From Bacteroidales bacterium (GTDB lineage: Bacteria > Bacteroidota > Bacteroidia > Bacteroidales > 4484-276), in the NCBI GenBank assembly GCA_012523265.1, contig JAAYIU010000071.1, forward strand, positions 1 to 40,190: 40,190 nucleotides of DNA, read 5' to 3'. Positions 296 through 22,165 of the stretch are shown piece by piece (position 1 is the stretch's first letter; each line of letters starts with the position of its first letter). A model generated the notes under the pieces. The model was not told the DNA's origin. It did no database searches and worked only from the letters and a program-made list of their open reading frames with translations. A program made the position numbers and the translations under genes.

Positions 296-328
296 AAAAA
301 AGCCGGGAGAAATGATTTTCTCCCGGCT
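296..328 (-). terminator. Intrinsic terminator after porV
   Basis: 12-bp perfect stem AGCCGGGAGAAA (301-312) / TTTCTCCCGGCT (317-328), followed by a T-run on the minus strand. Confidence 0.8.
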
Positions 329-371: not shown

Positions 372-1565
372 TTAAAACTCGGCAAAGTCGAAGCTCAGGG
401 TAAAACGCAATGTGTTTTCCAGTGGGTTTTGCTGTTCCAGCGGTATCAGATACGAGAAGTCCAACCCGAACACATTGTATTTAAGTCCGGCTCCCAGGGT
501 GAAATATTTACGATTTCCTTTGTTTTTATTTTCATAAAAGAAACCACCGCGAACAGCAAAAACCTTGTTGTACCAATACTCTGCGCCGACGGAGAAATAA
601 AATTCGCGCAGCTCTTCTTCGAAGCCGCCGGGTGCGTCGTACCACGACTGGATCATGCCTTCCACAGGCCCCACATTGGGATCTCGTCCGGCTTCGATGA
701 CCCGTTGCCCGTCGATAATAATATAACCTGACGAATCCCTGGCATAGACCGGAGGGGTGGGAACGAGCAGCTTGTTAACATCAAACATAAACGACAGGCG
801 GTTGTAGTCGTCCAGATCGAGGGTAAGGCGCGGGCCGATGCGCAAGTTGGTAGGAATAAAATCTTTTTCGGTGGTAGCGTCAGAATAGGAGATTTTTGAT
901 CCGATATTGGAGATATTAATACCCAGAGCGAATTCGGCATATTCAAAGTTGCGCCAGTCGAGTTCGCGCTGATGATACACCGCAACGTCGGCTGCCACTG
1001 ACTGGCCGGGCTTGGTAGCCTGTCCGCCCACGCTCACGCCCTGTGTAAGGTTGGAGTGGATGTAACGGGCGGCAACAGCTCCCGACCAGGTTTCGGAGAA
1101 CTTACGGCTATAGGTAGCATCTACCGAGAATTCGTTAGGCCGGTAGTTACCGATAGCATAACCTTCGATGTTGGTAAACTGAATATCACCCAAAGTAAAG
1201 TAAAGCAGCGAAGCGGCAACCGTTTGCTTGTCGTCGATGCGGTAAAAGCCTGACACATACGCCAGGTTGATGTCGCTGACCAATGCGCGCAGCCACGGGC
1301 TGTACGATGCCGAGAAACCGGCTTTAGGTTCGATGAAAGCATATTTGGCAGGATTCCAGTGCATGGAGGCGGCATCGGGTGTGGAGGCAGCGCCAACATC
1401 GCCCATGGCACCCGAACGGGCATCAGAGGCTATCAGCAGAAATGGCACTGCCGTAGTGATGGTGTTGGTTTGCCCGAGATAATTGGGTTTTTCACTATCC
1501 TGCGACCAGGCCAGGTGTGTCAGCATCATACATGCAGTTACAACTGCAAGGGTTTTTTTAATCAT
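372..1565 (-). CDS. porV: T9SS outer-membrane beta-barrel shuttle protein PorV
   Basis: Signal peptide, N-terminal ITTAVPFLLIASDARSGAMGDVG, WNPAKYAF, C-terminal NPLENTLRFTLSFDF; lies directly downstream of porU. Confidence 0.93.
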   Translation of the reverse strand: MIKKTLAVVTACMMLTHLAWSQDSEKPNYLGQTNTITTAVPFLLIASDARSGAMGDVGAASTPDAASMHWNPAKYAFIEPKAGFSASYSPWLRALVSDINLAYVSGFYRIDDKQTVAASLLYFTLGDIQFTNIEGYAIGNYRPNEFSVDATYSRKFSETWSGAVAARYIHSNLTQGVSVGGQATKPGQSVAADVAVYHQRELDWRNFEYAEFALGINISNIGSKISYSDATTEKDFIPTNLRIGPRLTLDLDDYNRLSFMFDVNKLLVPTPPVYARDSSGYIIIDGQRVIEAGRDPNVGPVEGMIQSWYDAPGGFEEELREFYFSVGAEYWYNKVFAVRGGFFYENKNKGNRKYFTLGAGLKYNVFGLDFSYLIPLEQQNPLENTLRFTLSFDFAEF

Positions 1566-1656: not shown

Positions 1657-4600
1657 TTAATCTGTGATAATGAGTTTCTGCACCCGTTCGGTAAACTGAC
1701 CTTTGGCGTTGCCCACACGCATGCGATACAGGTACATGCCCGGCGCCAGCTTCTGGCCGCCATAGCTGGTGCCGTCCCAGAAAATGGGTTCCATAGCATA
1801 GCCGCTGGTGGAAATCGTGTGTGATTCGAGTGTTTGTACCAGCTTACCATAAAAATCGTAAACTTCTACAGTAGCCGTCAGGTCGCCTTCAAACTGATTG
1901 TGGCGGAAGGTGAACCACGTTTCGTTGCGAAACGGGTTGGGATAGTTAAAAACATCGAGCAGGCTGACGCTGATACTGTCTGAAACAAAAAACTCCAGGG
2001 TTTTCTCCGAAGAGTTGTTAAACATATCCCAGGCGCGCAGACGCAACGTGTGCACCCCGTTTGACAATGGGCCGAGCGGCAGGGCAATGCTTCCGCTGCT
2101 GTGGTCGTCAAGCTCGGGATCGAAAAGATGGTTGAGGATCATCGAGTGATAGCTGTTTCCATCGATGGTAAGCACAATGTCGTGGCCTATGCCGGCACCG
2201 GTAGCGTTTATGCCCGATGGGTCGGAAAGACGCGCCAGAAATAGTGGCTCAGGATTGATGGCCGTACCGGGTATAAAAGTGCTGTCGTTAAGAAACATTT
2301 TGATGTCGGGGCCTTCATTATCGACCTGTGTGCTTTGTGGTGTGCCGCCCACCACCAGTCCCGAAAAGTAACCACTGGCATCGCGGGTGCTATCGATGGC
2401 ATAATAGCTCAGCTTTCCGTAGCCAAAATTATAGTCGATGTCGCGCGGGAGCATGAAGGTGTAGCTGAACCTGCCGTTTTTAACGCTTGCTTTTCCCTGG
2501 CAAAGGATGTTGTTTTGTAATTCAAAAGTATAAGGATAGCTTTCGGAGGCAGCGCCGAGTGTGGTTACCTGTTCAGGTTTGTCGTAAAGCACCGGGTATA
2601 TGGTTCCGTGAAAATCGCTAAGCATAACTCCCGGCATATTGTGCTGCTGAATGTGTCCGCTAATGGTGATGGTGCTGTTGGCGCTCAGCGTATCTTTAAA
2701 ATGAATAGCCGGCTGTCCGTTGATGGAATCGGTGATGATGTCGTGTTGTGGCAAGGCAAGCCTGAGGGCAGGATCGCCGAGCAGTGCAAAATTTAAGAGG
2801 CTGGTGCTGGTGGGCAGTTTTGATTTCATAATCAAATCGCCAAAGCGAAGGCTATTGGTACCTTGTACTGTAAAAAGTGTGTCGTAAACGCGCTGGTTGA
2901 GAACCAGGTTCACGCTGGCAAAAGCAACGCGTGTAGTTGTTAGCAGTGCGATACCGCCGCCATGCGGATTGAGCAGCACCAGCTCGCCGGCGGAGGTGAG
3001 TGCAGGATTATCATAACGACTAAACTCACAGGTAGCTGTTATTACCAGTGGCAGCCGGTCGTAGTTTTTCCAGGAGAGGATGTCGCTGATCTCTACCACA
3101 CTTTCGTGCGTAAGGCCGGTTTCGCCGCCGTGGCCGGTATAATTTACGATCAAAGCGCCTTCCTGCATCTGATCGTTAAAGGCTCTGTTGGCCTGCGGGA
3201 AAGTATTTCCGTTGGCAGTGCTTTCGAGCGGATAGGCATCGATATAAATTTTGTTGATGTTCACATCGCGGTTTTTGCGCCTGATGTCGCGCACCAGAAT
3301 CGTATCGGCCTGAAACAGGTGCAGGTTGAAATTGCCGTCGTCGGCCATAAAGCACATTTGCTTGCGCCAGGCGCCCTGGTTTCGGCTGGAAAGACGCATA
3401 TAGCGTTCTACTTTATCCACCATATCGTTAGCCTGTTGGGGGGTAACCACCGGAAATCTTCCGATACCCAGATCGATACTTCCCACCGATTCCTGACCCT
3501 CGCCGGCATCCATCATACCAAAAAAGTCGTCGGTGACAAAAGAGCCGGCATACCAATGCGAATTTTTGGCTTCAAAAGTGGGAACCATATTATGATTTTC
3601 ACCAGCGCGGTTTTTGAGATCGTAAGAAGCATCGCCAAAGAGCAACAAATACTTGAGCTTGGGCGCTGCCGGCGAGCGGTAATAAATCATGCGCACAAAA
3701 TCACGGATGGCTGACGGATCGGCTATTCCCGAACCAAACTCATTATAAATCTGGTCGGTAGTCACCACATGCACAGCCATATCATCCACCTCCTGGTGAA
3801 GTACTTTGAGCCGCTGGGCCTGCGCCAAAAAAAGCGGATGCGTAATAATGATAAAATCAGCGGCGCCAAGCTGATGCAGATTTTGATTTTCGACAGAACC
3901 CATCAATAGTGGTGAACGGTAATCGTTGGCGGTAAAGCCTACAAATTCGTTAATGGTATCGGATTTAATGATGAATTTGCATGCATCATTTTCAAAGGTG
4001 GTGTTCATCTGATAGGGTAGCAATGGGTTGTTGATATTCCAAACCTTAAGATTCGTTTCAGCATTGGCAATTACATATTGGCTAACACGATTGGGAAGTA
4101 CCTGCTGGCGATTTCTGAATGAGAAAAATTTACCATCATAAACCAAATGACTTACCACATTTACGGTAACGTAATTGAGCCATCCTGTCGAAAAATTGTC
4201 AGGTCTTAGATAGGTGATGTTAATGGTTACATCGGGGGTATCGTTAATTTTCAACCAGCGCGCTTTATTAGAAACGTTGGCATATTTGGTGACCGAATTC
4301 AACATAACATAACTCACCCTGTCGTAATACATTGAATCGCCGTTTGCACTGATTACAAACTGACTTGTCGATGCCGAGCGGGCGGCGAAGTCGGTGCTGA
4401 TGTGTGTGTTGGCGCTTACGTCGCGGTGCGGGAAAGGGAAGAAGAAGTCGTAGCTCAGCTGTTCGCTAAAGGTTTCGCCGTACCATTCGCGACCCGAACG
4501 AATAAGGTTGATGGAGTCGATTTCGTGCGTGGCATAATCGTCGTAGGTGGTTACAATATTTTCGGCTGTAAGCGTCTGTTGTGGCTGCATCTGGAGGCGC

Positions 4601-5496
4601 TTTCCGTCGATGGCTGAGGTATTAATAAAATAAAAGGCGGTATCCGAGTACTTATTCAGCGAAAATTCGTAAGCCTGCTTTATGTTGCTGTACTTCCATT
4701 GGTGTGGCGACTGGCCATAAAAGACGAAGTAGTCGCCGGCATCGAAAGAGCCATCGCCACCGTCGAACATTTCGATGGCATTTTCCTGCAGGTCGTCGTA
4801 GCGGAAGTCGTCGTTGGCCTGTGGCAACATGCCACCACCATTGCCATACACAGCAATAGCCGAAGAGGGGATGCTGCCCTGTGCCCCCAACTGCTGCAAA
4901 TGCTCCCAGGTAAGCTTGTAAATACCATCGGTGAGCAGGCCGATCTTAAACCACGTTCCGGCAGCCAGCACCGAGTTGTCGGCATAGTTAGGAATGGAAT
5001 CCCGCTTTACGCGGATATTCGCTTCGAAAGGCGATACTTCCCAGGAAAGCTCGAAGGAGATTATCTTTTCGAAATTGCCGGAGACGGCATTAAAGCGCAG
5101 CGGCATCAACCGGAAGATGGTGTGCCGCTCGCCCCGCGTCACGGCAATCTGCTCCGAATATTGTGGCGCGTCAGTGATCAGTTGTGCGTCTTCAATCAAA
5201 CGCATGTCGGCAGCTACGGTAGCCCATTTTACATTTTTTAATTCAAAACTAAGGCGCTCCGTATTTTCGTTCATCGGAATGCGCCGCGTAAAAACGGGCA
5301 GCAAGCCATAGGCATCCACGAAAGTGGCATCATCGAAATTCAGCACCAGCTCTGTCGATTCTTTTGCAGAAGCATCCCACGGCGCCGGAGCATTCCATTG
5401 CAGGATGTGATGCTCAGCAGAAACAGCCTGGCCAAAGAGATCAAAAGCTGCCGTGATGAGTAGCAGCAGCAGCAAGGGTTTATAAATATTCTTCAT
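1657..5496 (-). CDS. porU: T9SS sortase PorU paralog B (peptidase C25 family), divergent copy
   Basis: 1279 aa; signal peptide; YADNSVLAAGTWFKI, YLLLFGDASYD, catalytic NYTGHGGE and TATCEF motifs; C-terminal YPNPF...KLII CTD-like end. Confidence 0.85.
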   Translation of the reverse strand: MKNIYKPLLLLLLITAAFDLFGQAVSAEHHILQWNAPAPWDASAKESTELVLNFDDATFVDAYGLLPVFTRRIPMNENTERLSFELKNVKWATVAADMRLIEDAQLITDAPQYSEQIAVTRGERHTIFRLMPLRFNAVSGNFEKIISFELSWEVSPFEANIRVKRDSIPNYADNSVLAAGTWFKIGLLTDGIYKLTWEHLQQLGAQGSIPSSAIAVYGNGGGMLPQANDDFRYDDLQENAIEMFDGGDGSFDAGDYFVFYGQSPHQWKYSNIKQAYEFSLNKYSDTAFYFINTSAIDGKRLQMQPQQTLTAENIVTTYDDYATHEIDSINLIRSGREWYGETFSEQLSYDFFFPFPHRDVSANTHISTDFAARSASTSQFVISANGDSMYYDRVSYVMLNSVTKYANVSNKARWLKINDTPDVTINITYLRPDNFSTGWLNYVTVNVVSHLVYDGKFFSFRNRQQVLPNRVSQYVIANAETNLKVWNINNPLLPYQMNTTFENDACKFIIKSDTINEFVGFTANDYRSPLLMGSVENQNLHQLGAADFIIITHPLFLAQAQRLKVLHQEVDDMAVHVVTTDQIYNEFGSGIADPSAIRDFVRMIYYRSPAAPKLKYLLLFGDASYDLKNRAGENHNMVPTFEAKNSHWYAGSFVTDDFFGMMDAGEGQESVGSIDLGIGRFPVVTPQQANDMVDKVERYMRLSSRNQGAWRKQMCFMADDGNFNLHLFQADTILVRDIRRKNRDVNINKIYIDAYPLESTANGNTFPQANRAFNDQMQEGALIVNYTGHGGETGLTHESVVEISDILSWKNYDRLPLVITATCEFSRYDNPALTSAGELVLLNPHGGGIALLTTTRVAFASVNLVLNQRVYDTLFTVQGTNSLRFGDLIMKSKLPTSTSLLNFALLGDPALRLALPQHDIITDSINGQPAIHFKDTLSANSTITISGHIQQHNMPGVMLSDFHGTIYPVLYDKPEQVTTLGAASESYPYTFELQNNILCQGKASVKNGRFSYTFMLPRDIDYNFGYGKLSYYAIDSTRDASGYFSGLVVGGTPQSTQVDNEGPDIKMFLNDSTFIPGTAINPEPLFLARLSDPSGINATGAGIGHDIVLTIDGNSYHSMILNHLFDPELDDHSSGSIALPLGPLSNGVHTLRLRAWDMFNNSSEKTLEFFVSDSISVSLLDVFNYPNPFRNETWFTFRHNQFEGDLTATVEVYDFYGKLVQTLESHTISTSGYAMEPIFWDGTSYGGQKLAPGMYLYRMRVGNAKGQFTERVQKLIITD

Positions 5497-5552
5497 AATA
5501 TCTTTACGGAATTATCAGCAGTTTTATTTATCAAAAATAATTTCTTAAAAAA

Positions 5553-8500
5553 TTAGCGTGCAATTACAAGCTTACTTACCGCAGAGGTAGTGCGTCCGAT
5601 TTCATCTCTAATCTGAACCCTGTACACATACACGCCGCCGCCCAGACTTCGGCCACTGTCGGTGGTGCCATCCCAACGAATAGGCTCAGCATAGAAACCG
5701 CTGCTCAGGTTGTTTTGTTGCAAGGTGGTCAACAACCGGCCGCTAAGATCGTAAATTTCTATTTTCACTTCTGTAAGCTCGTTGGCCTTATTGTGATTGT
5801 ATTTGAACCAGGTTTCGGTGGCAAAAGGATTTGGATAGCTGTAGATTTTATCAATAATGATCTGATCGCCACCTACTACAACAAATTTGAGCGATGCTTC
5901 GGAAGAGTTATTAAAAACATCCCACACCCTAAAAGTAACCATATGCTCTCCCGGCTCCAGGTTGCGAAAGGGAAAGCGCACGTAGCCGCTGGTATACCCT
6001 TTGGCATCCGACTCGTAATAGTCGTTTAGGTTATAGGGTCTTTCGGTATTTCCATCCAGCACGGCAGTAATATCGTGGCCAATGCTGTTGCCCACAGTGT
6101 TGATGCCGCTGTGGTCGAAGACATGCGCCAGCAGCACAGGGTTTTCGTTGGTAAAGTCGCCCCAGCGGAAGGTGGTGTCGTTCATATAAAGTTCTACCTC
6201 CGGCCCCTCTTTATCGGCAAGGGTGTTTTCGTCGAACCCGCCGACGATCAGATTAAAGTCATAACCATTGGCCGTTTTCACGCCGTCTTCGGCAAAATAA
6301 CTGATTTTACCCTGCCCATAATTGTAGGCTATGTCGATGGGAACCATAAATCTGAAAGAGAAAACGCCGTCCGTCACCTCGGTTTGTCCTTTATAAATTA
6401 CATTTTTGCGCAGCTTGAAAGTGCGCACCTGGCTCGACGAATCCTGACCCAGTGTACTTTCCACCGATTCTTTGTCATAAACAATGGCTTTTAATATCCC
6501 GTTAAAATCAGATTGAACGGCACCCGTGTTATCGGTAACCACGCCTTCGATTTTTACATTCGACAATGCATTGATTGTATCGGCCACTTGTCCGGTTTCT
6601 GCAAAAGTGATAGCGGTGGTGTGCACCTCGTAATCAGGATAGGCAATTTTCAGCGCGGGATCGCCAATCAGCAGAAACTTCAAGCCGTTGCCCAGTGTAT
6701 TGCTCTCGCGTTTGGCCAAACGGATAAGATCGCCCATAGCGTAATAGGCGCTGTTATTTTTAGAGAACATTTTTTGGTAAATCTTTTCGTTGAGCGTGTA
6801 GTTGGAACCGGCATAAGTGGCACGCGCCGTAGTAAACAGGGCTATTCCGCCGCCTTTGGGATTCAGGAAAACATACTCGCCTGCCGAGGTGCGCCCGGGG
6901 TCGTCATAGCGGGCAAACTCACAGGTAGCGGTGATAAACACAGCCATCTTATCGTAGTTTTTCCAGCTATTAATATCTCCGTTTTGCAGAACGCGCTCAT
7001 GTGCCCAGCCCACTTCGCCCCCGTGGCCGGTGTAATTCATAACGAGTGTACCTTTTTCGATGCGGTTGTTGATGGCCTCATTTACATCGGGATAACGCTG
7101 CCCGCCGGCAGTAGTCTGCTGCGGGTAGGCATCGAGATAAATCTTGTCGGTGTTGTATTGCGGATAGTAGTTCTCGATAAGTTTTGCCAGGTCGTCGGCC
7201 TGATTGGTGTGCAGATTGCCTTCTTCGTCGTCGCCGACAAATGTTAACACATTGCGCCAGTCGTCCATGCACTTGCGGCTGGTGGCATAATGCATTACCT
7301 TGTCCACACTTCGCTTGGCTTCTTCAGGCGTGGCTACCACAAAGCGTCCGATGCCGATATCTACCAAATCTCTTTCGCTCACACTTTCGTTGGGATCGAG
7401 AAACCCGAAATAGTCGTCGGTAGCAAAGGAGGCGATATACGAAATGGAGTTGACCGATTCGTAGGTCGGGACAAAGTTGGTGTTGTTTTGCAGGCGGTCT
7501 TTGTAGTCGTAGGAAGCATCACCAAAAAGCAGCAGATAGCTTGGCATCACCTCGCCATTGCCGGCGCGGGTATAAAACATGCGCATCATCTCTTTGATGG
7601 CTGTAATATCCTGCGCTCCCGACGAAAATTCGTTGTACACTGCCTGTGGCGTAGTGACCATTACCGTCAGGTTAGAAAAATCGCGGTGGAAATCGGCCAG
7701 GCGGTCGGCCTGCTCCAGAAAGTCGGGATGTGAAACGATGACGTAGTCGATGTTGCGCTGCGCGTGCAGGTTTTGGTTGGTAATAGTTCCGGCGGCTTCA
7801 GCCGTTAGAAACTGGCTGCCGTCGAAAGCCATAAATTCGCGGATCACGGGAGTTTCGAGCTTGAAGCGCAGCGTGTTATTTTGCGCTGTGGTTTGCACCT
7901 GATGCGCGTCGGTGGGTGATGTTACCTCCCACACAGTAATGCCGGAGCCTGCATTCCCGAGTACAAATTGAGTAATGTCTCCTTCCCCAAATGTGTCTGT
8001 ATTTCTAAAATCCATTTGCGCCCCGCTGAAAACCAGATTGCGCACCACGTTCAGTTCGATGTAGTCGAGCCAGCCAATGGAGCTGCTCACGGATTTGTTG
8101 TATTTGAGGCCGACGTTAACATCGCTGTCCGAAATCTCCAGCCGTCTTGTAATGGTATTGTCTTTGGCATAATCGCCTTGTGACGTTTCGGGAGCACCCT
8201 GTATGGGTATGGTTGCAACATTGTCGCCATTCATCGAAACTGTAAATGATGAAGAGACTACTGATTTCGCCACAGCTCTTATCATCAAGGTGTGTTGCGC
8301 TGAGGTAACAATATTGGGAAACGAAAAAGCAAAGTTGTGGGTTGTCTGCACGTCAAAGACCTCGCCCAGCCACTGGCGACCGGTTTTATAAATGCTCAGA
8401 TTGTCCCGCTCATGAAACTTGTGATCGGCAAAAGTAGTGGCCTCGTGTGTAGCGGCCTGGGTAGCCTGCGGCAGCATAGCGATGCGTTTTCCTTCGCCGG

Positions 8501-9365
8501 CTTTTATGGTAATAAAATAATAGGTGTGATCGGAATAAATGTTTTGCTGATGATCAAATTTCAACGCGCTGGGATTGTACTTCCAGGCGTGCGGCGACTG
8601 GCCATAAAACAGGAAATAGTCGCCCGGATCGAAACGGCCGTCGCCGCCATCCATCATTTGAATAGCGTTTTCTATCAGGTCGTCGGGGCGATATTCGCTG
8701 TTGGCTTCGGGCAGCATGCCGCCGCCATTGCCGTAAAGGCGCACTGTGGCCGAACTCACGCCGGAAAGATTCATCCCCATTTGCGCAAGCTGCTCATAGG
8801 TAACTTTGTAAATGCCGGTTTCCTGCACACTTATCCTGAACCACTCGCCACTGGCCAACACCGAGTTGGCGGCGTACTCCTTGGCGGCTGTTGTATTTTT
8901 TAATCCCTCCTTGGGCGTCAGCTCCAAATCGAACGCCACCAGTTTTTCGTATTTCCCGCTAAGCATGTTCAGCCTGAAGGGGAGCAGATGCACCATGGCA
9001 ACCGATACACCACGTGCACCGGCAATGTGGCTTTGCGGCTCGATGGCCGGCGTTATCATCAAAAGATTATCTATCAGCATCAGCTCGTCAGAAGTCAAAG
9101 GCAGGTATTCGGCATTGAGCAGTTTGGCTTCCACCGAGGTTGCTGCATTCTCCAGGGGCATCGCGATTGAAAACAGTGGCAGATTTGCGGATTGGCTTCC
9201 ATAGTCAGCACCGGTAAAAAATAAACGCGAAACTACAGGCGCCTCGGGGGTGGCCTGTTGATGTATGGTATGCCACTGGAGCTGGTAATGTTGCACCAGC
9301 TCGCCGGCCGATGCCACGGCTGAAACCAACACCAGAAAAACTGTAAAAAAGTGACGATTGATCAT
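5553..9365 (-). CDS. porU: T9SS sortase PorU paralog A (peptidase C25 family)
   Basis: 1270 aa; signal peptide; NSVLASGEWFRI, YLLLFGDASYDYKDR, NYTGHGGEVGWAHER, ITATCEF; YPNPF...KLVIAR end. Confidence 0.92.
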   Translation of the reverse strand: MINRHFFTVFLVLVSAVASAGELVQHYQLQWHTIHQQATPEAPVVSRLFFTGADYGSQSANLPLFSIAMPLENAATSVEAKLLNAEYLPLTSDELMLIDNLLMITPAIEPQSHIAGARGVSVAMVHLLPFRLNMLSGKYEKLVAFDLELTPKEGLKNTTAAKEYAANSVLASGEWFRISVQETGIYKVTYEQLAQMGMNLSGVSSATVRLYGNGGGMLPEANSEYRPDDLIENAIQMMDGGDGRFDPGDYFLFYGQSPHAWKYNPSALKFDHQQNIYSDHTYYFITIKAGEGKRIAMLPQATQAATHEATTFADHKFHERDNLSIYKTGRQWLGEVFDVQTTHNFAFSFPNIVTSAQHTLMIRAVAKSVVSSSFTVSMNGDNVATIPIQGAPETSQGDYAKDNTITRRLEISDSDVNVGLKYNKSVSSSIGWLDYIELNVVRNLVFSGAQMDFRNTDTFGEGDITQFVLGNAGSGITVWEVTSPTDAHQVQTTAQNNTLRFKLETPVIREFMAFDGSQFLTAEAAGTITNQNLHAQRNIDYVIVSHPDFLEQADRLADFHRDFSNLTVMVTTPQAVYNEFSSGAQDITAIKEMMRMFYTRAGNGEVMPSYLLLFGDASYDYKDRLQNNTNFVPTYESVNSISYIASFATDDYFGFLDPNESVSERDLVDIGIGRFVVATPEEAKRSVDKVMHYATSRKCMDDWRNVLTFVGDDEEGNLHTNQADDLAKLIENYYPQYNTDKIYLDAYPQQTTAGGQRYPDVNEAINNRIEKGTLVMNYTGHGGEVGWAHERVLQNGDINSWKNYDKMAVFITATCEFARYDDPGRTSAGEYVFLNPKGGGIALFTTARATYAGSNYTLNEKIYQKMFSKNNSAYYAMGDLIRLAKRESNTLGNGLKFLLIGDPALKIAYPDYEVHTTAITFAETGQVADTINALSNVKIEGVVTDNTGAVQSDFNGILKAIVYDKESVESTLGQDSSSQVRTFKLRKNVIYKGQTEVTDGVFSFRFMVPIDIAYNYGQGKISYFAEDGVKTANGYDFNLIVGGFDENTLADKEGPEVELYMNDTTFRWGDFTNENPVLLAHVFDHSGINTVGNSIGHDITAVLDGNTERPYNLNDYYESDAKGYTSGYVRFPFRNLEPGEHMVTFRVWDVFNNSSEASLKFVVVGGDQIIIDKIYSYPNPFATETWFKYNHNKANELTEVKIEIYDLSGRLLTTLQQNNLSSGFYAEPIRWDGTTDSGRSLGGGVYVYRVQIRDEIGRTTSAVSKLVIAR

Positions 9366-9540
9366 AAGATTATTATTTTATTAATAAAAGAGCCAACAAC
9401 ATGAGACAGACTATTGTTTATGGGAGCTTTACTGCCAATGCTGCTGACTATTGCCCGGTAACTACCTGTAATTAACACTTTGAAAAACGAAACTTTCGGG
9501 GCAATATTGCCGTTTTTTCCGTTTGCGTTCTTGCTGCGCT

Positions 9541-9548
9541 TATATTTG
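9541..9548 (+). promoter_or_regulatory. Bacteroidota primary-sigma -7 box upstream of porP-gldJ
   Basis: TATATTTG matches TAnnTTTG, about 100 bp upstream of the porP start. Confidence 0.6.
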
Positions 9549-9647
9549 CACGCTGAACGCATCAGAAGGATTGTTGTTAAAATATCCCGAAAAATAAAGA
9601 GTTAATAATCAAGTGAAAGGTTGCGTAACATCTCCGGAATGGTCATC

Positions 9648-10646
9648 ATGAAAAAGCTCCAAAAGCTTTCTGTCCTGCTGTTATTAATTGTTCTGGCTGC
9701 TACTATGCAGGCTCAGGATTACACCTATTCACAGTTTTATGCCAATCCGGTTTACCTCAACCCTGCCCTTGCCGGCTCCGCCTATTGCCCGCGCATTACG
9801 CTCAACTACCGCAACCAGTGGCCGCAGTTGCCGGCGTCGTTTGTTTCGTACAGCGCTGCCTACGACCAGCATGTCGATTTTATCTCCGGCGGCGTGGGCG
9901 TGCAGTTTCAATACGATAAAAGCGGCCAGGCAGCTATCCGTCAGTTTCGCCTTGGCGGGATGTATGCTTACCGGCTCGACATCGCCGAGCGGTGGCAGGC
10001 AAGCATGGCCCTCGAAGCGGCCTTTGGCCAACGGGGCGTCAGTTGGGACGACCTCGTTTTTGCTTCACGCATCGACCCGGCAAGCGGCAACCTGCTCCCA
10101 TCGGGGCCTCCCCCCGACAACTTTCGCGACAACGTCAACTACGCAGATTTTGCAGCCGGCTTTGTGGTAGGTTTTGATGAGAAAATTTTTCTGGGTGGCG
10201 CCGTGCATCATCTCACCACGCCTGACGTAGGCTTCATTAGCGAAAGCGACAACAAGCTGCCGATGAAAATTACGGTACACGCCGGGGCAAATATCGAAAG
10301 TGGCGGCCGCCGCAGCTACCGGAGCCGCGGGCCGGAACTAACCATTTCGCCCAATATTCTGTATCAGCAGCAAGGCGACTTCCGTCAGCTCAATATTGGC
10401 ACCTATTTTACGTTTGCACCTTTTGTTGGCGGCCTTTGGTATCGCCATGCGTTCGAAAATGCCGATGCCGTCATCGTACTGCTGGGATTACAATACAACA
10501 ATCTGAAGTTCGGTTACAGTTTCGACTACACTGTCTCCACACTGGCTATAGCCAGTGGTGGAGCACACGAAATATCTGTCGGCTGGCTTTTTGATTGCGA
10601 CAAAAAAAGTAACCGTTCCAGAGCAATAAAGTGTCCATCGTTTTAG
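9648..10646 (+). CDS. PorP/SprF family T9SS outer-membrane protein
   Basis: AQDYTYSQFYANPVYLNPALAG, NYRNQWP, GYSFDYT, GGAHEIS and C-terminal CPSF are PorP/SprF hallmarks; start moved to ATG 9648 (MKK signal peptide). Confidence 0.9.
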   Translation: MKKLQKLSVLLLLIVLAATMQAQDYTYSQFYANPVYLNPALAGSAYCPRITLNYRNQWPQLPASFVSYSAAYDQHVDFISGGVGVQFQYDKSGQAAIRQFRLGGMYAYRLDIAERWQASMALEAAFGQRGVSWDDLVFASRIDPASGNLLPSGPPPDNFRDNVNYADFAAGFVVGFDEKIFLGGAVHHLTTPDVGFISESDNKLPMKITVHAGANIESGGRRSYRSRGPELTISPNILYQQQGDFRQLNIGTYFTFAPFVGGLWYRHAFENADAVIVLLGLQYNNLKFGYSFDYTVSTLAIASGGAHEISVGWLFDCDKKSNRSRAIKCPSF

Positions 10647-10676: not shown

Positions 10677-12173
10677 ATGATGATAATCAAAAATCAGCAA
10701 ATTATAAGCCTGATAACCGTTGTGGCGTTAGCGTTCACGCTCTCTTCGTGCAGCGGAATCTTTGGATCGAAAAAGAAAACTTCGGCTACCACCGGATGGG
10801 ATTACAACAGTAGCACCAACGGAGGCTTTGCTGTTTCGGATATCAACGAACAGGAAACCGGCCCCGGATTGGTTTTCGTAGAAGGCGGCACCTTTGTTAT
10901 GGGACAAATGGGTGAAGACCCGATGTACGAAAATTCCGCTCCCGCACGCCGCGTCACGGTTCGTTCGTTTTATATGGACGAAACAGAGGTTACCAATCTC
11001 GATTATCTGGAATACCTCTACTGGCTAAGCAGGGTTTTCGGCGCTGATTATCCGGAGGTTTACCGCAAAGCGCTACCCGACACATTGGTGTGGCGCTCAC
11101 GGCTGGCTTACAACGAACCGTTGGCCAACCTTTATCTGCGTCATCCGGCCTACCACGATTATCCTGTGGTTGGCGTTACCTGGGTGCAGGCCACAGATTA
11201 CTGCCAGTGGCGTAGCGATCGTGTAAACGAGCTGTTGCTCATCAAAGCCGGCGTATTAGCCGAAGACCCGGACCAACGCAATGAAAATAGTTTCAATACC
11301 GAGGCTTACCTGGCGGGACAATATACCGGCTTGGTAAATAAGCCTATCGAAGACCTGGATCCCAGCAGCACCGGCGGGCGTAATGCACGCCTGGAAGACG
11401 GCATTATGCTTCCCAACTACCGGCTGCCCACCGAAGCCGAATGGGAATATGCTGCCTTAGGACTTTATGGCGACAATGAGCTTATCACCGAACGCCGCAT
11501 CTATCCGTGGGACGGTCATCTGGTGCGCAGTACCGGCGGCAAAAAAGAATATGGCAACTACATGGCCAACTTCAAACGTGCACGCGGCGACTACATGGGC
11601 GTTGCCGGAAGCCTCAACGATGGCGCCGACATCACAGCGCCGGTGGGCACCTATCCGGCCAACGACTTTGGCTTGTACAATATGGCCGGCAACGTTTCGG
11701 AGTGGGTGCAGGATGTCTATCGTAGCCTTAGCCACGAAGATGTTGCCGACTTCAGCCCGTTCAGAGGAAATATCTTTACCACCCCCGTGCTCGACGCCGA
11801 AGGCAACATCGCCGAAAAAGACAGCCTCGGACGAATCCGCTATCGCGAAATAACCATTAACGAAGCGCAGGACAGGTTTAACTACCGCGAAGCCGACAAC
11901 GTAAACTATCTCGACGGCGACAACCGCTCGGTGAACGATCCCGGCAAATGGCTCGACGACGTGAACAACGCCAACTCAACCAACCTGATGTACGACTACA
12001 AAAGCAGCAGCCTGATCAACGACCAGGCCCGCGTTTACAAAGGCGGCTCCTGGAAAGATGGCCCCTACTACCTCAGCCCGGGCGTGCGCAGATATCTCGA
12101 CCAAAACAAAGCCACCGATTATCTCGGATTCCGCTGCGCCATGGATCGCGTAGGGACTTCCGTGAAATTTTAA
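10677..12173 (+). CDS. gldJ: Gliding motility lipoprotein GldJ (FGE-sulfatase/SUMF1 fold)
   Basis: Lipobox LSSC; SATTGWDYN...GGF, GPGLVFVEGGTFVMG, ALPDTLVWR, YRLPTEAEWEYAA, GFRCAM; synteny with porU and murF. Confidence 0.82.
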   Translation: MMIIKNQQIISLITVVALAFTLSSCSGIFGSKKKTSATTGWDYNSSTNGGFAVSDINEQETGPGLVFVEGGTFVMGQMGEDPMYENSAPARRVTVRSFYMDETEVTNLDYLEYLYWLSRVFGADYPEVYRKALPDTLVWRSRLAYNEPLANLYLRHPAYHDYPVVGVTWVQATDYCQWRSDRVNELLLIKAGVLAEDPDQRNENSFNTEAYLAGQYTGLVNKPIEDLDPSSTGGRNARLEDGIMLPNYRLPTEAEWEYAALGLYGDNELITERRIYPWDGHLVRSTGGKKEYGNYMANFKRARGDYMGVAGSLNDGADITAPVGTYPANDFGLYNMAGNVSEWVQDVYRSLSHEDVADFSPFRGNIFTTPVLDAEGNIAEKDSLGRIRYREITINEAQDRFNYREADNVNYLDGDNRSVNDPGKWLDDVNNANSTNLMYDYKSSSLINDQARVYKGGSWKDGPYYLSPGVRRYLDQNKATDYLGFRCAMDRVGTSVKF

Positions 12174-18855: not shown

Positions 18856-18902
18856 CGCTCATTTTAAGCAATCTTACGTACATGCTGCAAAAGCCCTCAG
18901 TG

Positions 18903-19703
18903 ATGAAAAACCCAATGTCCTATATTCTTCGTGTCCTTGTTTTGCTTGTGACAGGGTCGCTGTTTTTCTCGTCGTGTATCCCGATGAAACGCATCGAGTA
19001 TCTGCAACAGGAAGCCCGCAAAGGGGATACCACCCGCACCCATTTTAAGAACATGAATCTTACCACCTACCGCATACAGGCAGGCGATAACCTTTACATC
19101 AAGGTGAACAGTGTGATGGCTGTGTCTGAAAACATTTTTGCTGAAGAAGGCTCCCGAACCAGCAACAACTATTACAGCGATGCTGGCATTTACCTGAACA
19201 GCTATCTGGTAAACGAAGAGGGCTACATCGACTTCCCCTATGTGGGCAGCATCTATGTGAAAGACCTGAGCGTGGAGCAGGCCAAAGATTTAATATCGGG
19301 CATCGTAAAAGATTACATCAAAGAATCGACGGTAGTGGTGCGGCTGGCGCTGTTTCAAATTTCTGCGTTGGGCGAGGTGAATCGCTCAGGACAAATGAGC
19401 ATTTATCAAAATCAGGTAACTATCTTCGACGTCATTGCTATGGCCGGCGATATGACCACCTTTGCCCGTCGCGACCAGGTGATCATCATACGTGAAAACC
19501 CCGATGGCGTTAAAACAAAAAAAATAAACCTCAATGATTTGTCAATCTTCGACAGCGAATATTACTACATTCAGCCCAACGACATCATTTACGTGCCGCC
19601 GGTAAAAGGCAAAAACTTTGCGTTCAGCCAATTTCCCTACGCACTGGTATTTTCGACCATCTCCACAACACTGCTTCTTATTAATTTTTTCCAAACAAAC
19701 TAA
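18903..19703 (+). CDS. wza: Polysaccharide export lipoprotein (Wza/Poly_export family)
   Basis: Lipobox FSSC; YRIQAGDNL, GYIDFPYVG, GEV, AGD and IQPNDIIYV motifs; start uncertain (18882, 18903 or 18915). Confidence 0.85.
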   Translation: MKNPMSYILRVLVLLVTGSLFFSSCIPMKRIEYLQQEARKGDTTRTHFKNMNLTTYRIQAGDNLYIKVNSVMAVSENIFAEEGSRTSNNYYSDAGIYLNSYLVNEEGYIDFPYVGSIYVKDLSVEQAKDLISGIVKDYIKESTVVVRLALFQISALGEVNRSGQMSIYQNQVTIFDVIAMAGDMTTFARRDQVIIIRENPDGVKTKKINLNDLSIFDSEYYYIQPNDIIYVPPVKGKNFAFSQFPYALVFSTISTTLLLINFFQTN

Positions 19704-19711
19704 TACAATAA

Positions 19712-22165
19712 GTGGAACCTAATCTCAACAGCCAATTATCGAATCAGGAAGAATCGATCGACATCAAACTGTTATTTATCAAGTTTTTCAGATACTGGTA
19801 TTTCTTTGCCCTCACCGTTTTTGTTGCACTGGTGATCGCTTTTCTTTTTAATAAATACACCAAACCAGTGTATGAAGTGAAGACTACCGTGCTGATTAAA
19901 GACGACAAAGCCGGACAAAATCTCATCGGCATCGGCATTGGCAACAGCCAACAAAATCTGGAAAACGAAATGGGGATCATCAACTCTTATGCGCTTGCTG
20001 CACGCACCATCAACAACCTGAATTTTGAAGTTTCCTACTACAAAGAAGATAATTTTATTACCAGCGAGTTGTACAAGTCGTCGCCCTTTGAGGTGGTGAT
20101 GGACACCGCGCATGTGCAACCCATCAATGTAAAGTTCAGCATCATCATCCAAAGCAACTCAGCTTACCAGCTCATACTTCAGGCCGAAAATGCCTCGCTC
20201 TACAGCTTTGGAGAACGCGAGGAAATTTCTACCGTCGACGACCCGATTGTGATAAACAAAACCTACAAATTTGGTGAAGAGATAGAAACCGATATTTTTA
20301 AATTCACCATTTTGCTTACTGAAAACTTCGACAAGGAAGCTATCAACCAAAACCTGTCGTTTGTTTTTAACGATTACCAAAGTCTGATCAGAACCTTCAG
20401 AAGCACCAAGCTGGAGCCTATCAACCGCGAGGCTTCCATCATCGACATCTCGATAAAAGGTGGTAATGCCCAAAAGCTTTCGGATTACCTCAACGAGCTA
20501 ACCAACCAGTATCTGCTGCGTGGCATCGAGAAGAAAAATCAAATTGCTGAGAACACCATTCGCTTTATCAACTCCGAGCTGGTAGATATCACCGATTCGC
20601 TGACATACACCGAGGGTGAGCTGCAAGATTTCAGGGTAAGCAACGAATTTATGGATATGGATTTCAAATCCACACAGGTATTTGAAGGGATGAAGCAATT
20701 TCAGGATCAAAAGGCGCAGCTCATCGTCAAGGCCAAATATTACCGCAACCTGCAGGATTATCTAAAGAAAAACCAGGACAACATCGACGACATTGTGATT
20801 CCTTCGTCGATGGGTATTGAAGACCCGTTGCTTTCACAGCTCATCAGCGGACTGGCCGAACTCTATTCAAAACGAGCCGAGGCCTTGTTCAGCTCTTCAG
20901 AGAAAAACCCGCAGGTAGCAGCCATCGACCAGCGCATCCGCACCACCAAAAAAACCATCCTGGAAAACATCCAGAACATCGTCGTTACTTCCGAAATTTC
21001 TATCAAAGACATCGACGGCCGCATAGCGGCACTTAACCGGGAAATGAACCGACTGCCCGAAACCCAGCGTCGACTGGTAGGCATACAGCGGAAGTACAAG
21101 CTCAACGATGCGCTGTACACTTTCCTGCTGCAGAAACGCTCCGAAGCACAAATAGCCAAGGCCAGCAACCTGCCCGACAACGAGGTTGTCGACATTGCCC
21201 GCAGTGGCGAACAGGTGTACCCCAAGAAGAGCCTCAACTACCTCATAGCATTGGTGCTCGGATTGTTACTCCCGGTAGCTTACATTTTGGGTAAAGATTA
21301 TTTTAATGATAAAATCATCGAGCGCAAAGACATCGAAAAGATTACCAACGTACCAATTGTCGGGCACGTGATTCACAACAGCAAGGAATCGGCACTCGTG
21401 GTGAGCGAATCGCCAAAGTCGAGCATCGCCGAATCGTTCCGCTCCATTCGTACCAACCTGCAGTATCTTACCAAAGGCAAAGAGAAGCAGGTGATATTGG
21501 TAACCAGCGACATGGTGGGCGCCGGCAAGACGTTTATTGCCATGAACATCGCCTCCATCTTTGCCATGTATGATAAGAAAACCCTGCTCATGGGCTTCGA
21601 CCTGCGCAAGCCCAAAATTTATCAGGACTTTGGCCTCACCAACACCGAAGGCATCAGCTCCTATCTTATCAACAAGAGCAGCTTTGAAGACATCGTTCAA
21701 ACCTCACCGGTAAAGAATCTCGACATCATTATGGGAGGCCCTGTGCCACCCAACCCCGCCGAGCTTATCGCGTCAGCAAAAACCAACGAGCTGATGAAAC
21801 GCGTGATGGAGGAGTACGACTTTGTGATCATCGACACCCCGCCGGTGGGTCTGGTTACAGATGCTTTCCTGCTGATGAAATATACCGACGCCAACCTGTT
21901 CCTGGTGCGCCAAAACTACACCAACAAGAAAATCTTCGAGTCGATTATCAAAGACATCGAAAACCGCAAGATGCCCAACATGTACATCCTCATCAACGAC
22001 GTGAAGCTGGGCAAAGGCTCCTACGGCTATGGTTACGGGTATGGATACGGATACGGCTATGGATACGGATACGGATATGGCTACGGCTATGGTTACGGCT
22101 ATTACTCCGAAGACGAGAAAACCGATAAGAAATCCATCATCAGCAAGCTTTTCGGGAAAGCGTAA
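19712..22165 (+). CDS. wzc: Polysaccharide co-polymerase / BY tyrosine autokinase (Wzc)
   Basis: Two TM segments flanking a periplasmic coiled region; ESFRSIRTNL, Walker A GAGKT, DLRKP, PPNPAEL, IIDTPP; C-terminal (YG)13YY. Confidence 0.92.
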   Translation: MEPNLNSQLSNQEESIDIKLLFIKFFRYWYFFALTVFVALVIAFLFNKYTKPVYEVKTTVLIKDDKAGQNLIGIGIGNSQQNLENEMGIINSYALAARTINNLNFEVSYYKEDNFITSELYKSSPFEVVMDTAHVQPINVKFSIIIQSNSAYQLILQAENASLYSFGEREEISTVDDPIVINKTYKFGEEIETDIFKFTILLTENFDKEAINQNLSFVFNDYQSLIRTFRSTKLEPINREASIIDISIKGGNAQKLSDYLNELTNQYLLRGIEKKNQIAENTIRFINSELVDITDSLTYTEGELQDFRVSNEFMDMDFKSTQVFEGMKQFQDQKAQLIVKAKYYRNLQDYLKKNQDNIDDIVIPSSMGIEDPLLSQLISGLAELYSKRAEALFSSSEKNPQVAAIDQRIRTTKKTILENIQNIVVTSEISIKDIDGRIAALNREMNRLPETQRRLVGIQRKYKLNDALYTFLLQKRSEAQIAKASNLPDNEVVDIARSGEQVYPKKSLNYLIALVLGLLLPVAYILGKDYFNDKIIERKDIEKITNVPIVGHVIHNSKESALVVSESPKSSIAESFRSIRTNLQYLTKGKEKQVILVTSDMVGAGKTFIAMNIASIFAMYDKKTLLMGFDLRKPKIYQDFGLTNTEGISSYLINKSSFEDIVQTSPVKNLDIIMGGPVPPNPAELIASAKTNELMKRVMEEYDFVIIDTPPVGLVTDAFLLMKYTDANLFLVRQNYTNKKIFESIIKDIENRKMPNMYILINDVKLGKGSYGYGYGYGYGYGYGYGYGYGYGYGYGYYSEDEKTDKKSIISKLFGKA

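Follow-up and report, generated by a model that had tools for sequence, protein, structure and literature searches.

A conserved tandem pair of predicted PorU sortases upstream of a single porV in a metagenome-assembled Bacteroidales genome

The DNA analysed here (the window, 40,190 nt) is the entire contig C436 (JAAYIU010000071.1) of a metagenome-assembled genome of a Bacteroidales bacterium (GCA_012523265.1; 3.98 Mb in 476 contigs, 93% complete, 2.6% contamination). Towards its left end, on the reverse strand, lie two genes predicted to encode PorU, the T9SS (type IX secretion system) sortase, followed by a single porV gene (Table 1). The upstream porU gene is called copy A and the downstream one copy B. 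The gaps are 56 bp between A and B and 91 bp between B and porV, and the start and stop codons were checked. A sequence-only reading of this DNA had described two co-linear paralogues of about 1270 aa, 56 bp apart and upstream of one porV, and this layout is borne out by the open reading frames (ORFs), by the gaps and by the match of the porV ORF to NF033710 (496.8 bits, cut-off 250), to which a match to PF19572 (226.7 bits) can be added.

Table 1. Features of the porU-porU-porV locus and its immediate surroundings (positions in the window).
Feature	Position	Strand	Length	Remarks
Terminator-like hairpin	301–328	-		12-bp stem with 7 G-C pairs, then a T run; 44 bp past the porV stop codon
porV	372–1565	-	397 aa	Outer-membrane shuttle and anchor of PorU
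porU copy B	1657–5496	-	1279 aa	Downstream, faster-evolving paralogue; architecture as copy A
A-B gap	5497–5552	-	56 bp	A+T-rich; TAnnTTTG word 43 bp before the start codon of copy B
porU copy A	5553–9365	-	1270 aa	Upstream, more conservative paralogue; from the ORF list
Intergenic region between porU copy A and the PorP/SprF-family gene	9366–9620			Divergent genes on either side; presumed promoter region
PorP/SprF-family gene	9621–10646	+		TIGR03519, 232.6 bits (cut-off 90.55)
gldJ	10677–12173	+		TIGR03524, 461.2 bits (cut-off 458.2)

Both proteins match the PorU equivalog model NF033707 (cut-off 420) over positions 1–1094 of its 1095, A with 1355.2 bits and B with 1242.4 bits, and they are the only matches above cut-off in this genome. 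The coverage extends to their C-terminal ends, in agreement with the earlier description of these as resembling the C-terminal domain (CTD) of T9SS proteins. Both also carry the 'long form' N-terminus of NF052318 (cut-off 40; A 46 bits, B 49.8 bits) and a complete Peptidase_C25 domain (PF01364; A 361.6 bits, B 343.1 bits), which in copy A occupies residues 541–906. Read by eye, the two N-termini are signal-peptide-like, with a short charged start and then a hydrophobic run. A PDB search with copy A aligned its residues 163–1268 to positions 27–1153 of the Porphyromonas gingivalis PorU chain (6za2_A, E = 6.4e-168); copy B is related to this structure through its 1257-position alignment to A. 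For the tails, copy A passes TIGR04183 (cut-off 23) (28.4 bits) and copy B falls just under (22.3 bits), and both are below the cut-off of the CTD family PF18962, while a custom iterative CTD profile recovers the tails of both.

Other members of the peptidase family were also considered. Gingipain R chains matched copy A with only E = 5e-05 over about 120 residues, so that a gingipain-like C25 cargo protease was rejected, and the scores against the PorU2 model NF052324 (cut-off 450) are far too low for membership (A 184.4 bits, B 142.8 bits). Judged by these profile and structure matches, both genes are predicted to encode full-length PorU, and neither a cargo C25 protease nor PorU2. Public databases label relatives of copy B either 'type IX secretion system sortase PorU' or 'hypothetical protein'.

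The catalytic motifs that had been reported as intact in both copies, YTGHGGE for the histidine and TATCEF for the cysteine, could be located precisely. YTGHGG starts at residue 778 of A and 786 of B, and TATCEF at residues 812 and 820. The catalytic residues are His781 (codon 7023–7025) and Cys815 (codon 6921–6923) in copy A, and His789 (codon 3130–3132) and Cys823 (codon 3028–3030) in copy B. Both residues are kept in all 145 aligned PorU rows, including 31 of 31 B copies. The strings GEVGWAHERVL (A) and GETGLTHESVV (B) are present as described, but the motif following the histidine does not serve to tell B from A, since W787 is retained in 18 of the 31 B copies.

Aligned end to end, A and B are identical at 504 of 1257 positions (40%), with 20 positions gapped. 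Identity this low over the full length indicates an old paralogue pair and not an assembly echo, as the sequence-only reading had concluded, and this is in keeping with the trees described below.

The tandem pair is widespread and conserved, and not peculiar to the window, contrary to the impression given by the earlier reading that it is special to this locus. Within the window's family (Lentimicrobiaceae-like), 22 of 23 genomes, this one included, have at least two PorU matches above cut-off; in 20 these are in tandem on one contig and in two they lie on separate short contigs. The remaining genome (83% complete) has a single match. A genome of the same genus carries, besides its tandem pair, a third, partial PorU copy (L070, G006:C133:5563-8178; model positions 1–872). 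For the order as a whole, 251 Bacteroidales genomes (at least 90% complete, about 140 families) were evenly drawn from GTDB, with two candidates scored per genome. PorU was found in 227 of them and two matches in 62, five of which were set aside as probable split genes (G026, G053, G064, G071 and G173), leaving 57 two-PorU genomes. Among the matches listed, 20 genomes have adjacent PorU rows on the same strand, and the upstream copy has the higher score in all 20. The order porU-porU-porV is seen in nearly all tandem loci fetched. The closest named relatives of copy B (82% identity) come from metagenome-assembled genomes labelled uncultured Lentimicrobiaceae, and more distant pairs from Prolixibacteraceae and 'Bacteroidales' genomes. 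A sequence titled 'Clostridia bacterium' (L020, SABY01000003.1) carries a Bacteroidota T9SS locus with 81% identity to copy B, and that label is probably wrong. The RNA and DNA sequencing runs that contain this stretch are from biogas, wastewater, digester and sludge samples.

In Bacteroidia outside Bacteroidales, two matches were found in 19 of 242 genomes, at least one of these being a split gene; this tally counts the unpublished genomes G360 and G436 as one-match genomes, and their locus (L092) was left out of all trees and residue counts, so that nothing beyond the tally depends on them. In one family, all seven genomes have two PorU matches. Genomes from other classes of the phylum have one PorU each. 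Many of these also carry ORFs of 1631–1930 aa beside the one canonical PorU (e.g., G639:C73:5021-7234 and G592:C11:377531-379612), which match only about the first two thirds of the PorU model (208–281 bits, below cut-off) and are probably PorU2 proteins.

Phylogenetic reconstructions place copy B inside PorU. A FastTree tree of 145 PorU rows groups the upstream copies of its 31 pairs in one clade (support 100). All single-copy PorU belong to a clade from which the downstream copies are excluded, and A and B show matching branching orders at the family level. A rooted quick IQ-TREE reconstruction of 80 rows, with 10 outgroups from other classes, recovers B as monophyletic (17 of 17 rows, support 97) and A likewise (17 rows with one single-copy row inside, support 99), B being split from the rest only by branches of 0.035–0.05. 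When A and B were placed together, a grouping named after the first tree had been seen, the resulting tree was 18.6 log-likelihood units above the free quick search (approximately unbiased (AU) test, p-AU 0.653), so that the test does not reject a single duplication and, if anything, leans towards one. A larger rooted FastTree tree (196 rows, with 40 more singles and 11 outgroups) has an A side of 37 rows and a B side of 36 rows as sister groups, with support of 83. The trees and the AU test fit an origin of the A/B pair in one old duplication. The A and B clades are separate in 31 of 31 pairs, giving no sign of gene conversion.

Single-copy genomes and younger duplicates add detail to this history. 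Two singles of family f48 (L075 and L176) nest inside the A side, indicating that copy B was lost there. Genomes with a B-type gene alone were looked for among the 67 Bacteroidales singles using the difference between A and B profile scores, which ranged from -50 to +120 bits, and none was clearly B-like. Younger, separate duplications, in which the two copies are mutual nearest relatives, are found in families f94, f50, f10 and f187, where the copies are in tandem, and in genomes G300, G363, G435, G316, G091 and G023, where they lie on different contigs; dispersed duplicates in metagenome-assembled genomes could in part be binned strain variants. In a locus of family f3 (L047, G024:C59:50800-61100), the downstream PorU is extremely diverged (end branch 1.83, 872.8 bits) and its upstream partner is placed on the B side in the large tree, which may reflect a further round of divergence.

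Selection on the genes was estimated by the method of Nei and Gojobori (NG86) for six pairs among the window and three close genomes. The dN/dS ratio is 0.088–0.106 for copy A, 0.100–0.151 for copy B and 0.044–0.139 for porV, and the dN of B is 1.3–1.6 times that of A. Both copies are under purifying selection, and the values for B (0.10–0.15) are not those of a gene under relaxed selection. The ratio of B to A divergence within the family runs from 0.99 in the CTD to 1.20 in the catalytic domain, with divergence spread across all domains, and the mean identity of the CTD is as high in B (0.538) as in A (0.531). Contigs from four metatranscriptome runs, each from a different study, map to A, to B and, in three of the four runs, to porV (158–463 nt; at least 95% identity, mostly at least 99%), and matches of this kind to copy B speak against its being unexpressed, an outcome for which the sequence-only reading had allowed.

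The remainder of the attachment machinery is present once. PorV (the sole PorV equivalog found), PorQ (363.2 bits) and PorZ (548.7 bits) each occur once in this genome. With four candidates scored per genome, 53 of the 57 two-PorU genomes have one PorZ, two have two and in the other two none was found, and a second PorZ serving copy B was rejected on these counts. With PorZ, PorQ and PorV single here and PorZ single in those 53, it is unlikely that there is a full second attachment complex. A further barrel of the PorV/PorQ family is encoded elsewhere in the genome (G000:C272:11169-12122; L147:1396-2463; 126.9 bits, subfamily model only); it was dismissed as a second partner for B, as it sits between a 449-aa ORF and greA, without a link to PorU. 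Two genomes of family f2 have two full-length PorZ genes in tandem (G023:C20:212649-217296 and G163:C1:531102-535800), and in G023 a recent duplication has left two PorU genes as well, which are dispersed. PorZ duplication is otherwise rare, two matches occurring in seven of the 251 genomes, some of them probably split genes.

The cargo load of this genome is high. All 150 type-A CTD candidates that were scored, from a total of 218, pass the cut-off, as do five type-B CTDs, and the custom iterative profile finds 188 CTD-tailed ORFs. The type-A repertoire is very large for a 4-Mb genome. Across the order, the median number of TIGR04183 candidates is 180 in two-PorU genomes (n = 57) and 88 in one-PorU genomes (n = 165), or 45 and 26 per Mb, these being first-look candidates used as a proxy, with relatives counted as independent genomes. 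The difference has a Mann-Whitney p of 3.5e-10, which makes it look stronger than it is, given the non-independence of related genomes and the use of proxy counts.

At the residue level, the alignment has four B-specific columns, and close to the catalytic cysteine B differs in a clade-wide manner. All 31 A copies keep D822, where 23 of 31 B copies have N, and R825, also kept in every A copy, is lost in 25 of the 31 B copies. Position 850 is T in all 31 A copies, V in 48 of 63 singles and A in 30 of 31 B copies.

The pair is real and conserved, a variant with two sortases of a system already known. On balance, A and B are probably both working PorU sortases of one T9SS, with a partial division of labour and not purely redundant. 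They would have arisen by a single old tandem duplication in an ancestor shared by a large set of Bacteroidales families, most of them uncultured, and both would have been kept since in the fixed order A-B-porV. Each would be exported by the T9SS and held on PorV by a retained CTD-like tail, and the two would share the one PorZ/PorQ pair. Copy A may keep the ancestral housekeeping role, cleaving type-A CTDs and transferring cargo to the lipopolysaccharide acceptor, and copy B may act as an accessory sortase for part of the unusually large cargo load, either by handling only some of the cargo or by giving it another fate, for example release in place of anchoring. The long retention of a diverged pair in fixed order, the asymmetric rates and the changes beside the cysteine argue against plain redundancy. 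The more far-reaching proposal, that in about a quarter of Bacteroidales species two specialised sortases share one PorV, PorZ and PorQ, with A anchoring and B dealing with another subset or fate, such as release, is possible but rather doubtful.

Several observations weigh against a division of labour, which is something we infer from these patterns. Not one alignment column has A and the singles fixed for one residue and B for another, and only four conserved columns are lost in B. The P. gingivalis PorU, a proven transpeptidase, is without D822 and R825 in the 6za2 alignment, indicating that neither residue is required for anchoring; Arg825 as an acceptor-binding residue lost in B was ruled out on the same ground. 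Two classes of CTD, by which the sequence-only reading had suggested that the copies might split their cargo, find no support: the 188 tails form a single cloud, division into two clusters giving 185 and 3 with a silhouette of 0.066. The link between cargo count and PorU copy number is weak, as 26 of 165 one-PorU genomes reach at least 180 CTD candidates, and as five of the six families that hold both states go the expected way with genome size going along. No RNA-library contig bridges either gap, although the uncovered parts prove nothing, and these contigs may come from carried-over DNA. The reading frame of B is interrupted near the N-terminus in two of 31 pairs. Two of 67 singles (L163 and L174) lie on the B side of the FastTree tree with ambiguous profile scores, so that A is not established as the copy that is always kept; the first of these, from genome G195, has no tandem partner at its locus.

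In the two pairs with an interrupted B frame (L059 in G017 and L063 in G009), PorU-like coding continues through the apparent 'gaps' of 557 and 806 bp, and either sequencing error or early decay may account for the interruptions.

The absence of fixed shifts at conserved sites and the unimodal CTDs keep alive another explanation, that A and B have identical tasks and substrates and that the second gene does no more than add sortase capacity for a very large set of secreted type-A CTD proteins. The 141 columns with conservation of 90% or more in each of A, B and single-copy PorU fit such a dosage effect, as do the roughly doubled CTD candidates of two-PorU genomes, the single PorZ, PorV and PorQ, and the recurrence of independent PorU duplications in other lineages. 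Dosage duplicates are, as a general expectation, young or homogenised, whereas these copies are 40% identical, hold a fixed order across many families without sign of gene conversion, evolve at unequal rates and have clade-specific changes next to the catalytic cysteine; the 26 one-copy genomes mentioned above also cope with as many CTD candidates. We regard pure dosage as unlikely, while giving it an appreciable chance. Somewhat less probable still is that an A-B heterodimer replaces the PorU homodimer, in which case the copies might regulate each other through the intermolecular latency hairpin described for P. gingivalis PorU. According to a review (PMC10202324), when PorU dimerises, a beta-hairpin of the partner monomer inhibits its activity. 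The fixed order, the short gaps, the probable co-transcription and the retention of both copies in 22 of 23 family genomes would suit such a pairing. Copy A can stand alone after loss of B, however, as the f48 singles nested in the A side show, each copy keeps its own full catalytic set, and the younger duplicates elsewhere are dispersed rather than tandem.

The two remaining explanations concern copy B itself and the assembly. Its faster evolution, its TIGR04183 score just under the cut-off and its interruption in two of 31 genomes are what might be seen in a decaying or non-catalytic relic, but this is very improbable given the low dN/dS, the catalytic histidine and cysteine present in all B copies, the open, full-length frame in the window, a CTD as conserved as that of A, and the RNA-library contigs that map to it. 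A fragmented metagenome-assembled genome with 476 contigs and 2.6% contamination could in principle join the PorU genes of two organisms by misassembly or misbinning. This is barely credible here, with both genes on one 40-kb contig and the same ordered pair on single contigs in 20 family genomes and on finished-quality contigs of other families.

Returning to the reading in which A and B share the work of one T9SS, the pair can be set against known systems. It resembles P. gingivalis PorU (6ZA2) in family, architecture, His/Cys dyad, a predicted retained CTD, adjacency to porV, and single PorZ and PorQ. It differs in having two paralogous enzymes where P. gingivalis has one, in the NF052318 domain that A and B carry upstream of the region aligning to the 1156-residue chain, and in residues 822 and 825, which differ from P. 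gingivalis in both A and B. The porU-porV operons of Flavobacterium johnsoniae, Cytophaga hutchinsonii and Chryseobacterium likewise have gldJ nearby, but contain one PorU, while here a second, diverged PorU lies between porU and porV. A porU-porV-gldJ locus is described in a preprint (bioRxiv 10.64898/2026.09.25.754504), and a table in PMC11611037 gives one PorU each for P. gingivalis and C. hutchinsonii. Duplicated T9SS components of which both partners are active in the machine, GldK/GldJ and GldN/GldO, are covered in a passage of PMC10202324; those are structural ring parts, whereas the duplicated part here is a processing enzyme. PorU2 and PorV2 (NF052324, NF052325), which are distantly related to PorU and PorV, have been catalogued as a second, putative sorting module. 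In Gram-positive bacteria, a housekeeping sortase and class-specific accessory sortases divide substrates between them. The comparison is one of analogy only, since fold and chemistry are unrelated, and substrate motifs separating A from B were not found here.

Full-text literature searches returned no paper describing two PorU genes or a PorU paralogue, though supplements of T9SS surveys might list copy numbers, and the single hit for 'PorU2' is in fact the name 'PorU' with a citation number after it. Mechanistic studies of the T9SS attachment complex have all relied on one-PorU organisms, and how PorU picks anchoring or release of a cargo protein is not known, according to the part of review PMC10202324 that deals with it. 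A conserved, selected pair of sortases sharing a single PorV, PorZ and PorQ is a natural experiment on this choice, and if the two are indeed specialised, the choice would be answered genetically in these lineages. The pair also bears on how the T9SS is scaled up for a secretome with about 200 CTD proteins. Annotation and comparative genomics are affected as well: pipelines name both genes 'PorU', so that copy number and the distinction between A and B are invisible unless the locus is inspected.

The three genes porU-A, porU-B and porV probably form one transcription unit that ends at the hairpin downstream of porV, as suggested by their spacing and by a consensus scan, the only hairpin search made, in which no terminator-like hairpin was found in the A-B gap or the B-porV gap. 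The A-B gap has a median length of 39 bp in the 29 pairs with an uninterrupted B. Only seven of these 29 have the TAnnTTTG word, which is thus not conserved, and an internal promoter at this word was rejected. In the intergenic region upstream of copy A, a scan for sigma-70-like promoters gave matches at chance level only. The PorP-like gene and gldJ diverge from porU-A, making the locus a small T9SS cluster (porV, porU-B, porU-A, porP-like, gldJ).

At the other end of this cluster, the hairpin at 301–328 is a perfect palindrome with a 12-bp stem and T runs on both strands, lying between porV and the next ORF, and looks like a bidirectional terminator. Further along the window (18882–22165, forward strand), a gene for a Wza-like polysaccharide export protein (below cut-off) is followed by one for a Wzc-like tyrosine autokinase (TIGR01007, 162 bits), and by these matches the two are predicted to be a capsule or exopolysaccharide export pair.

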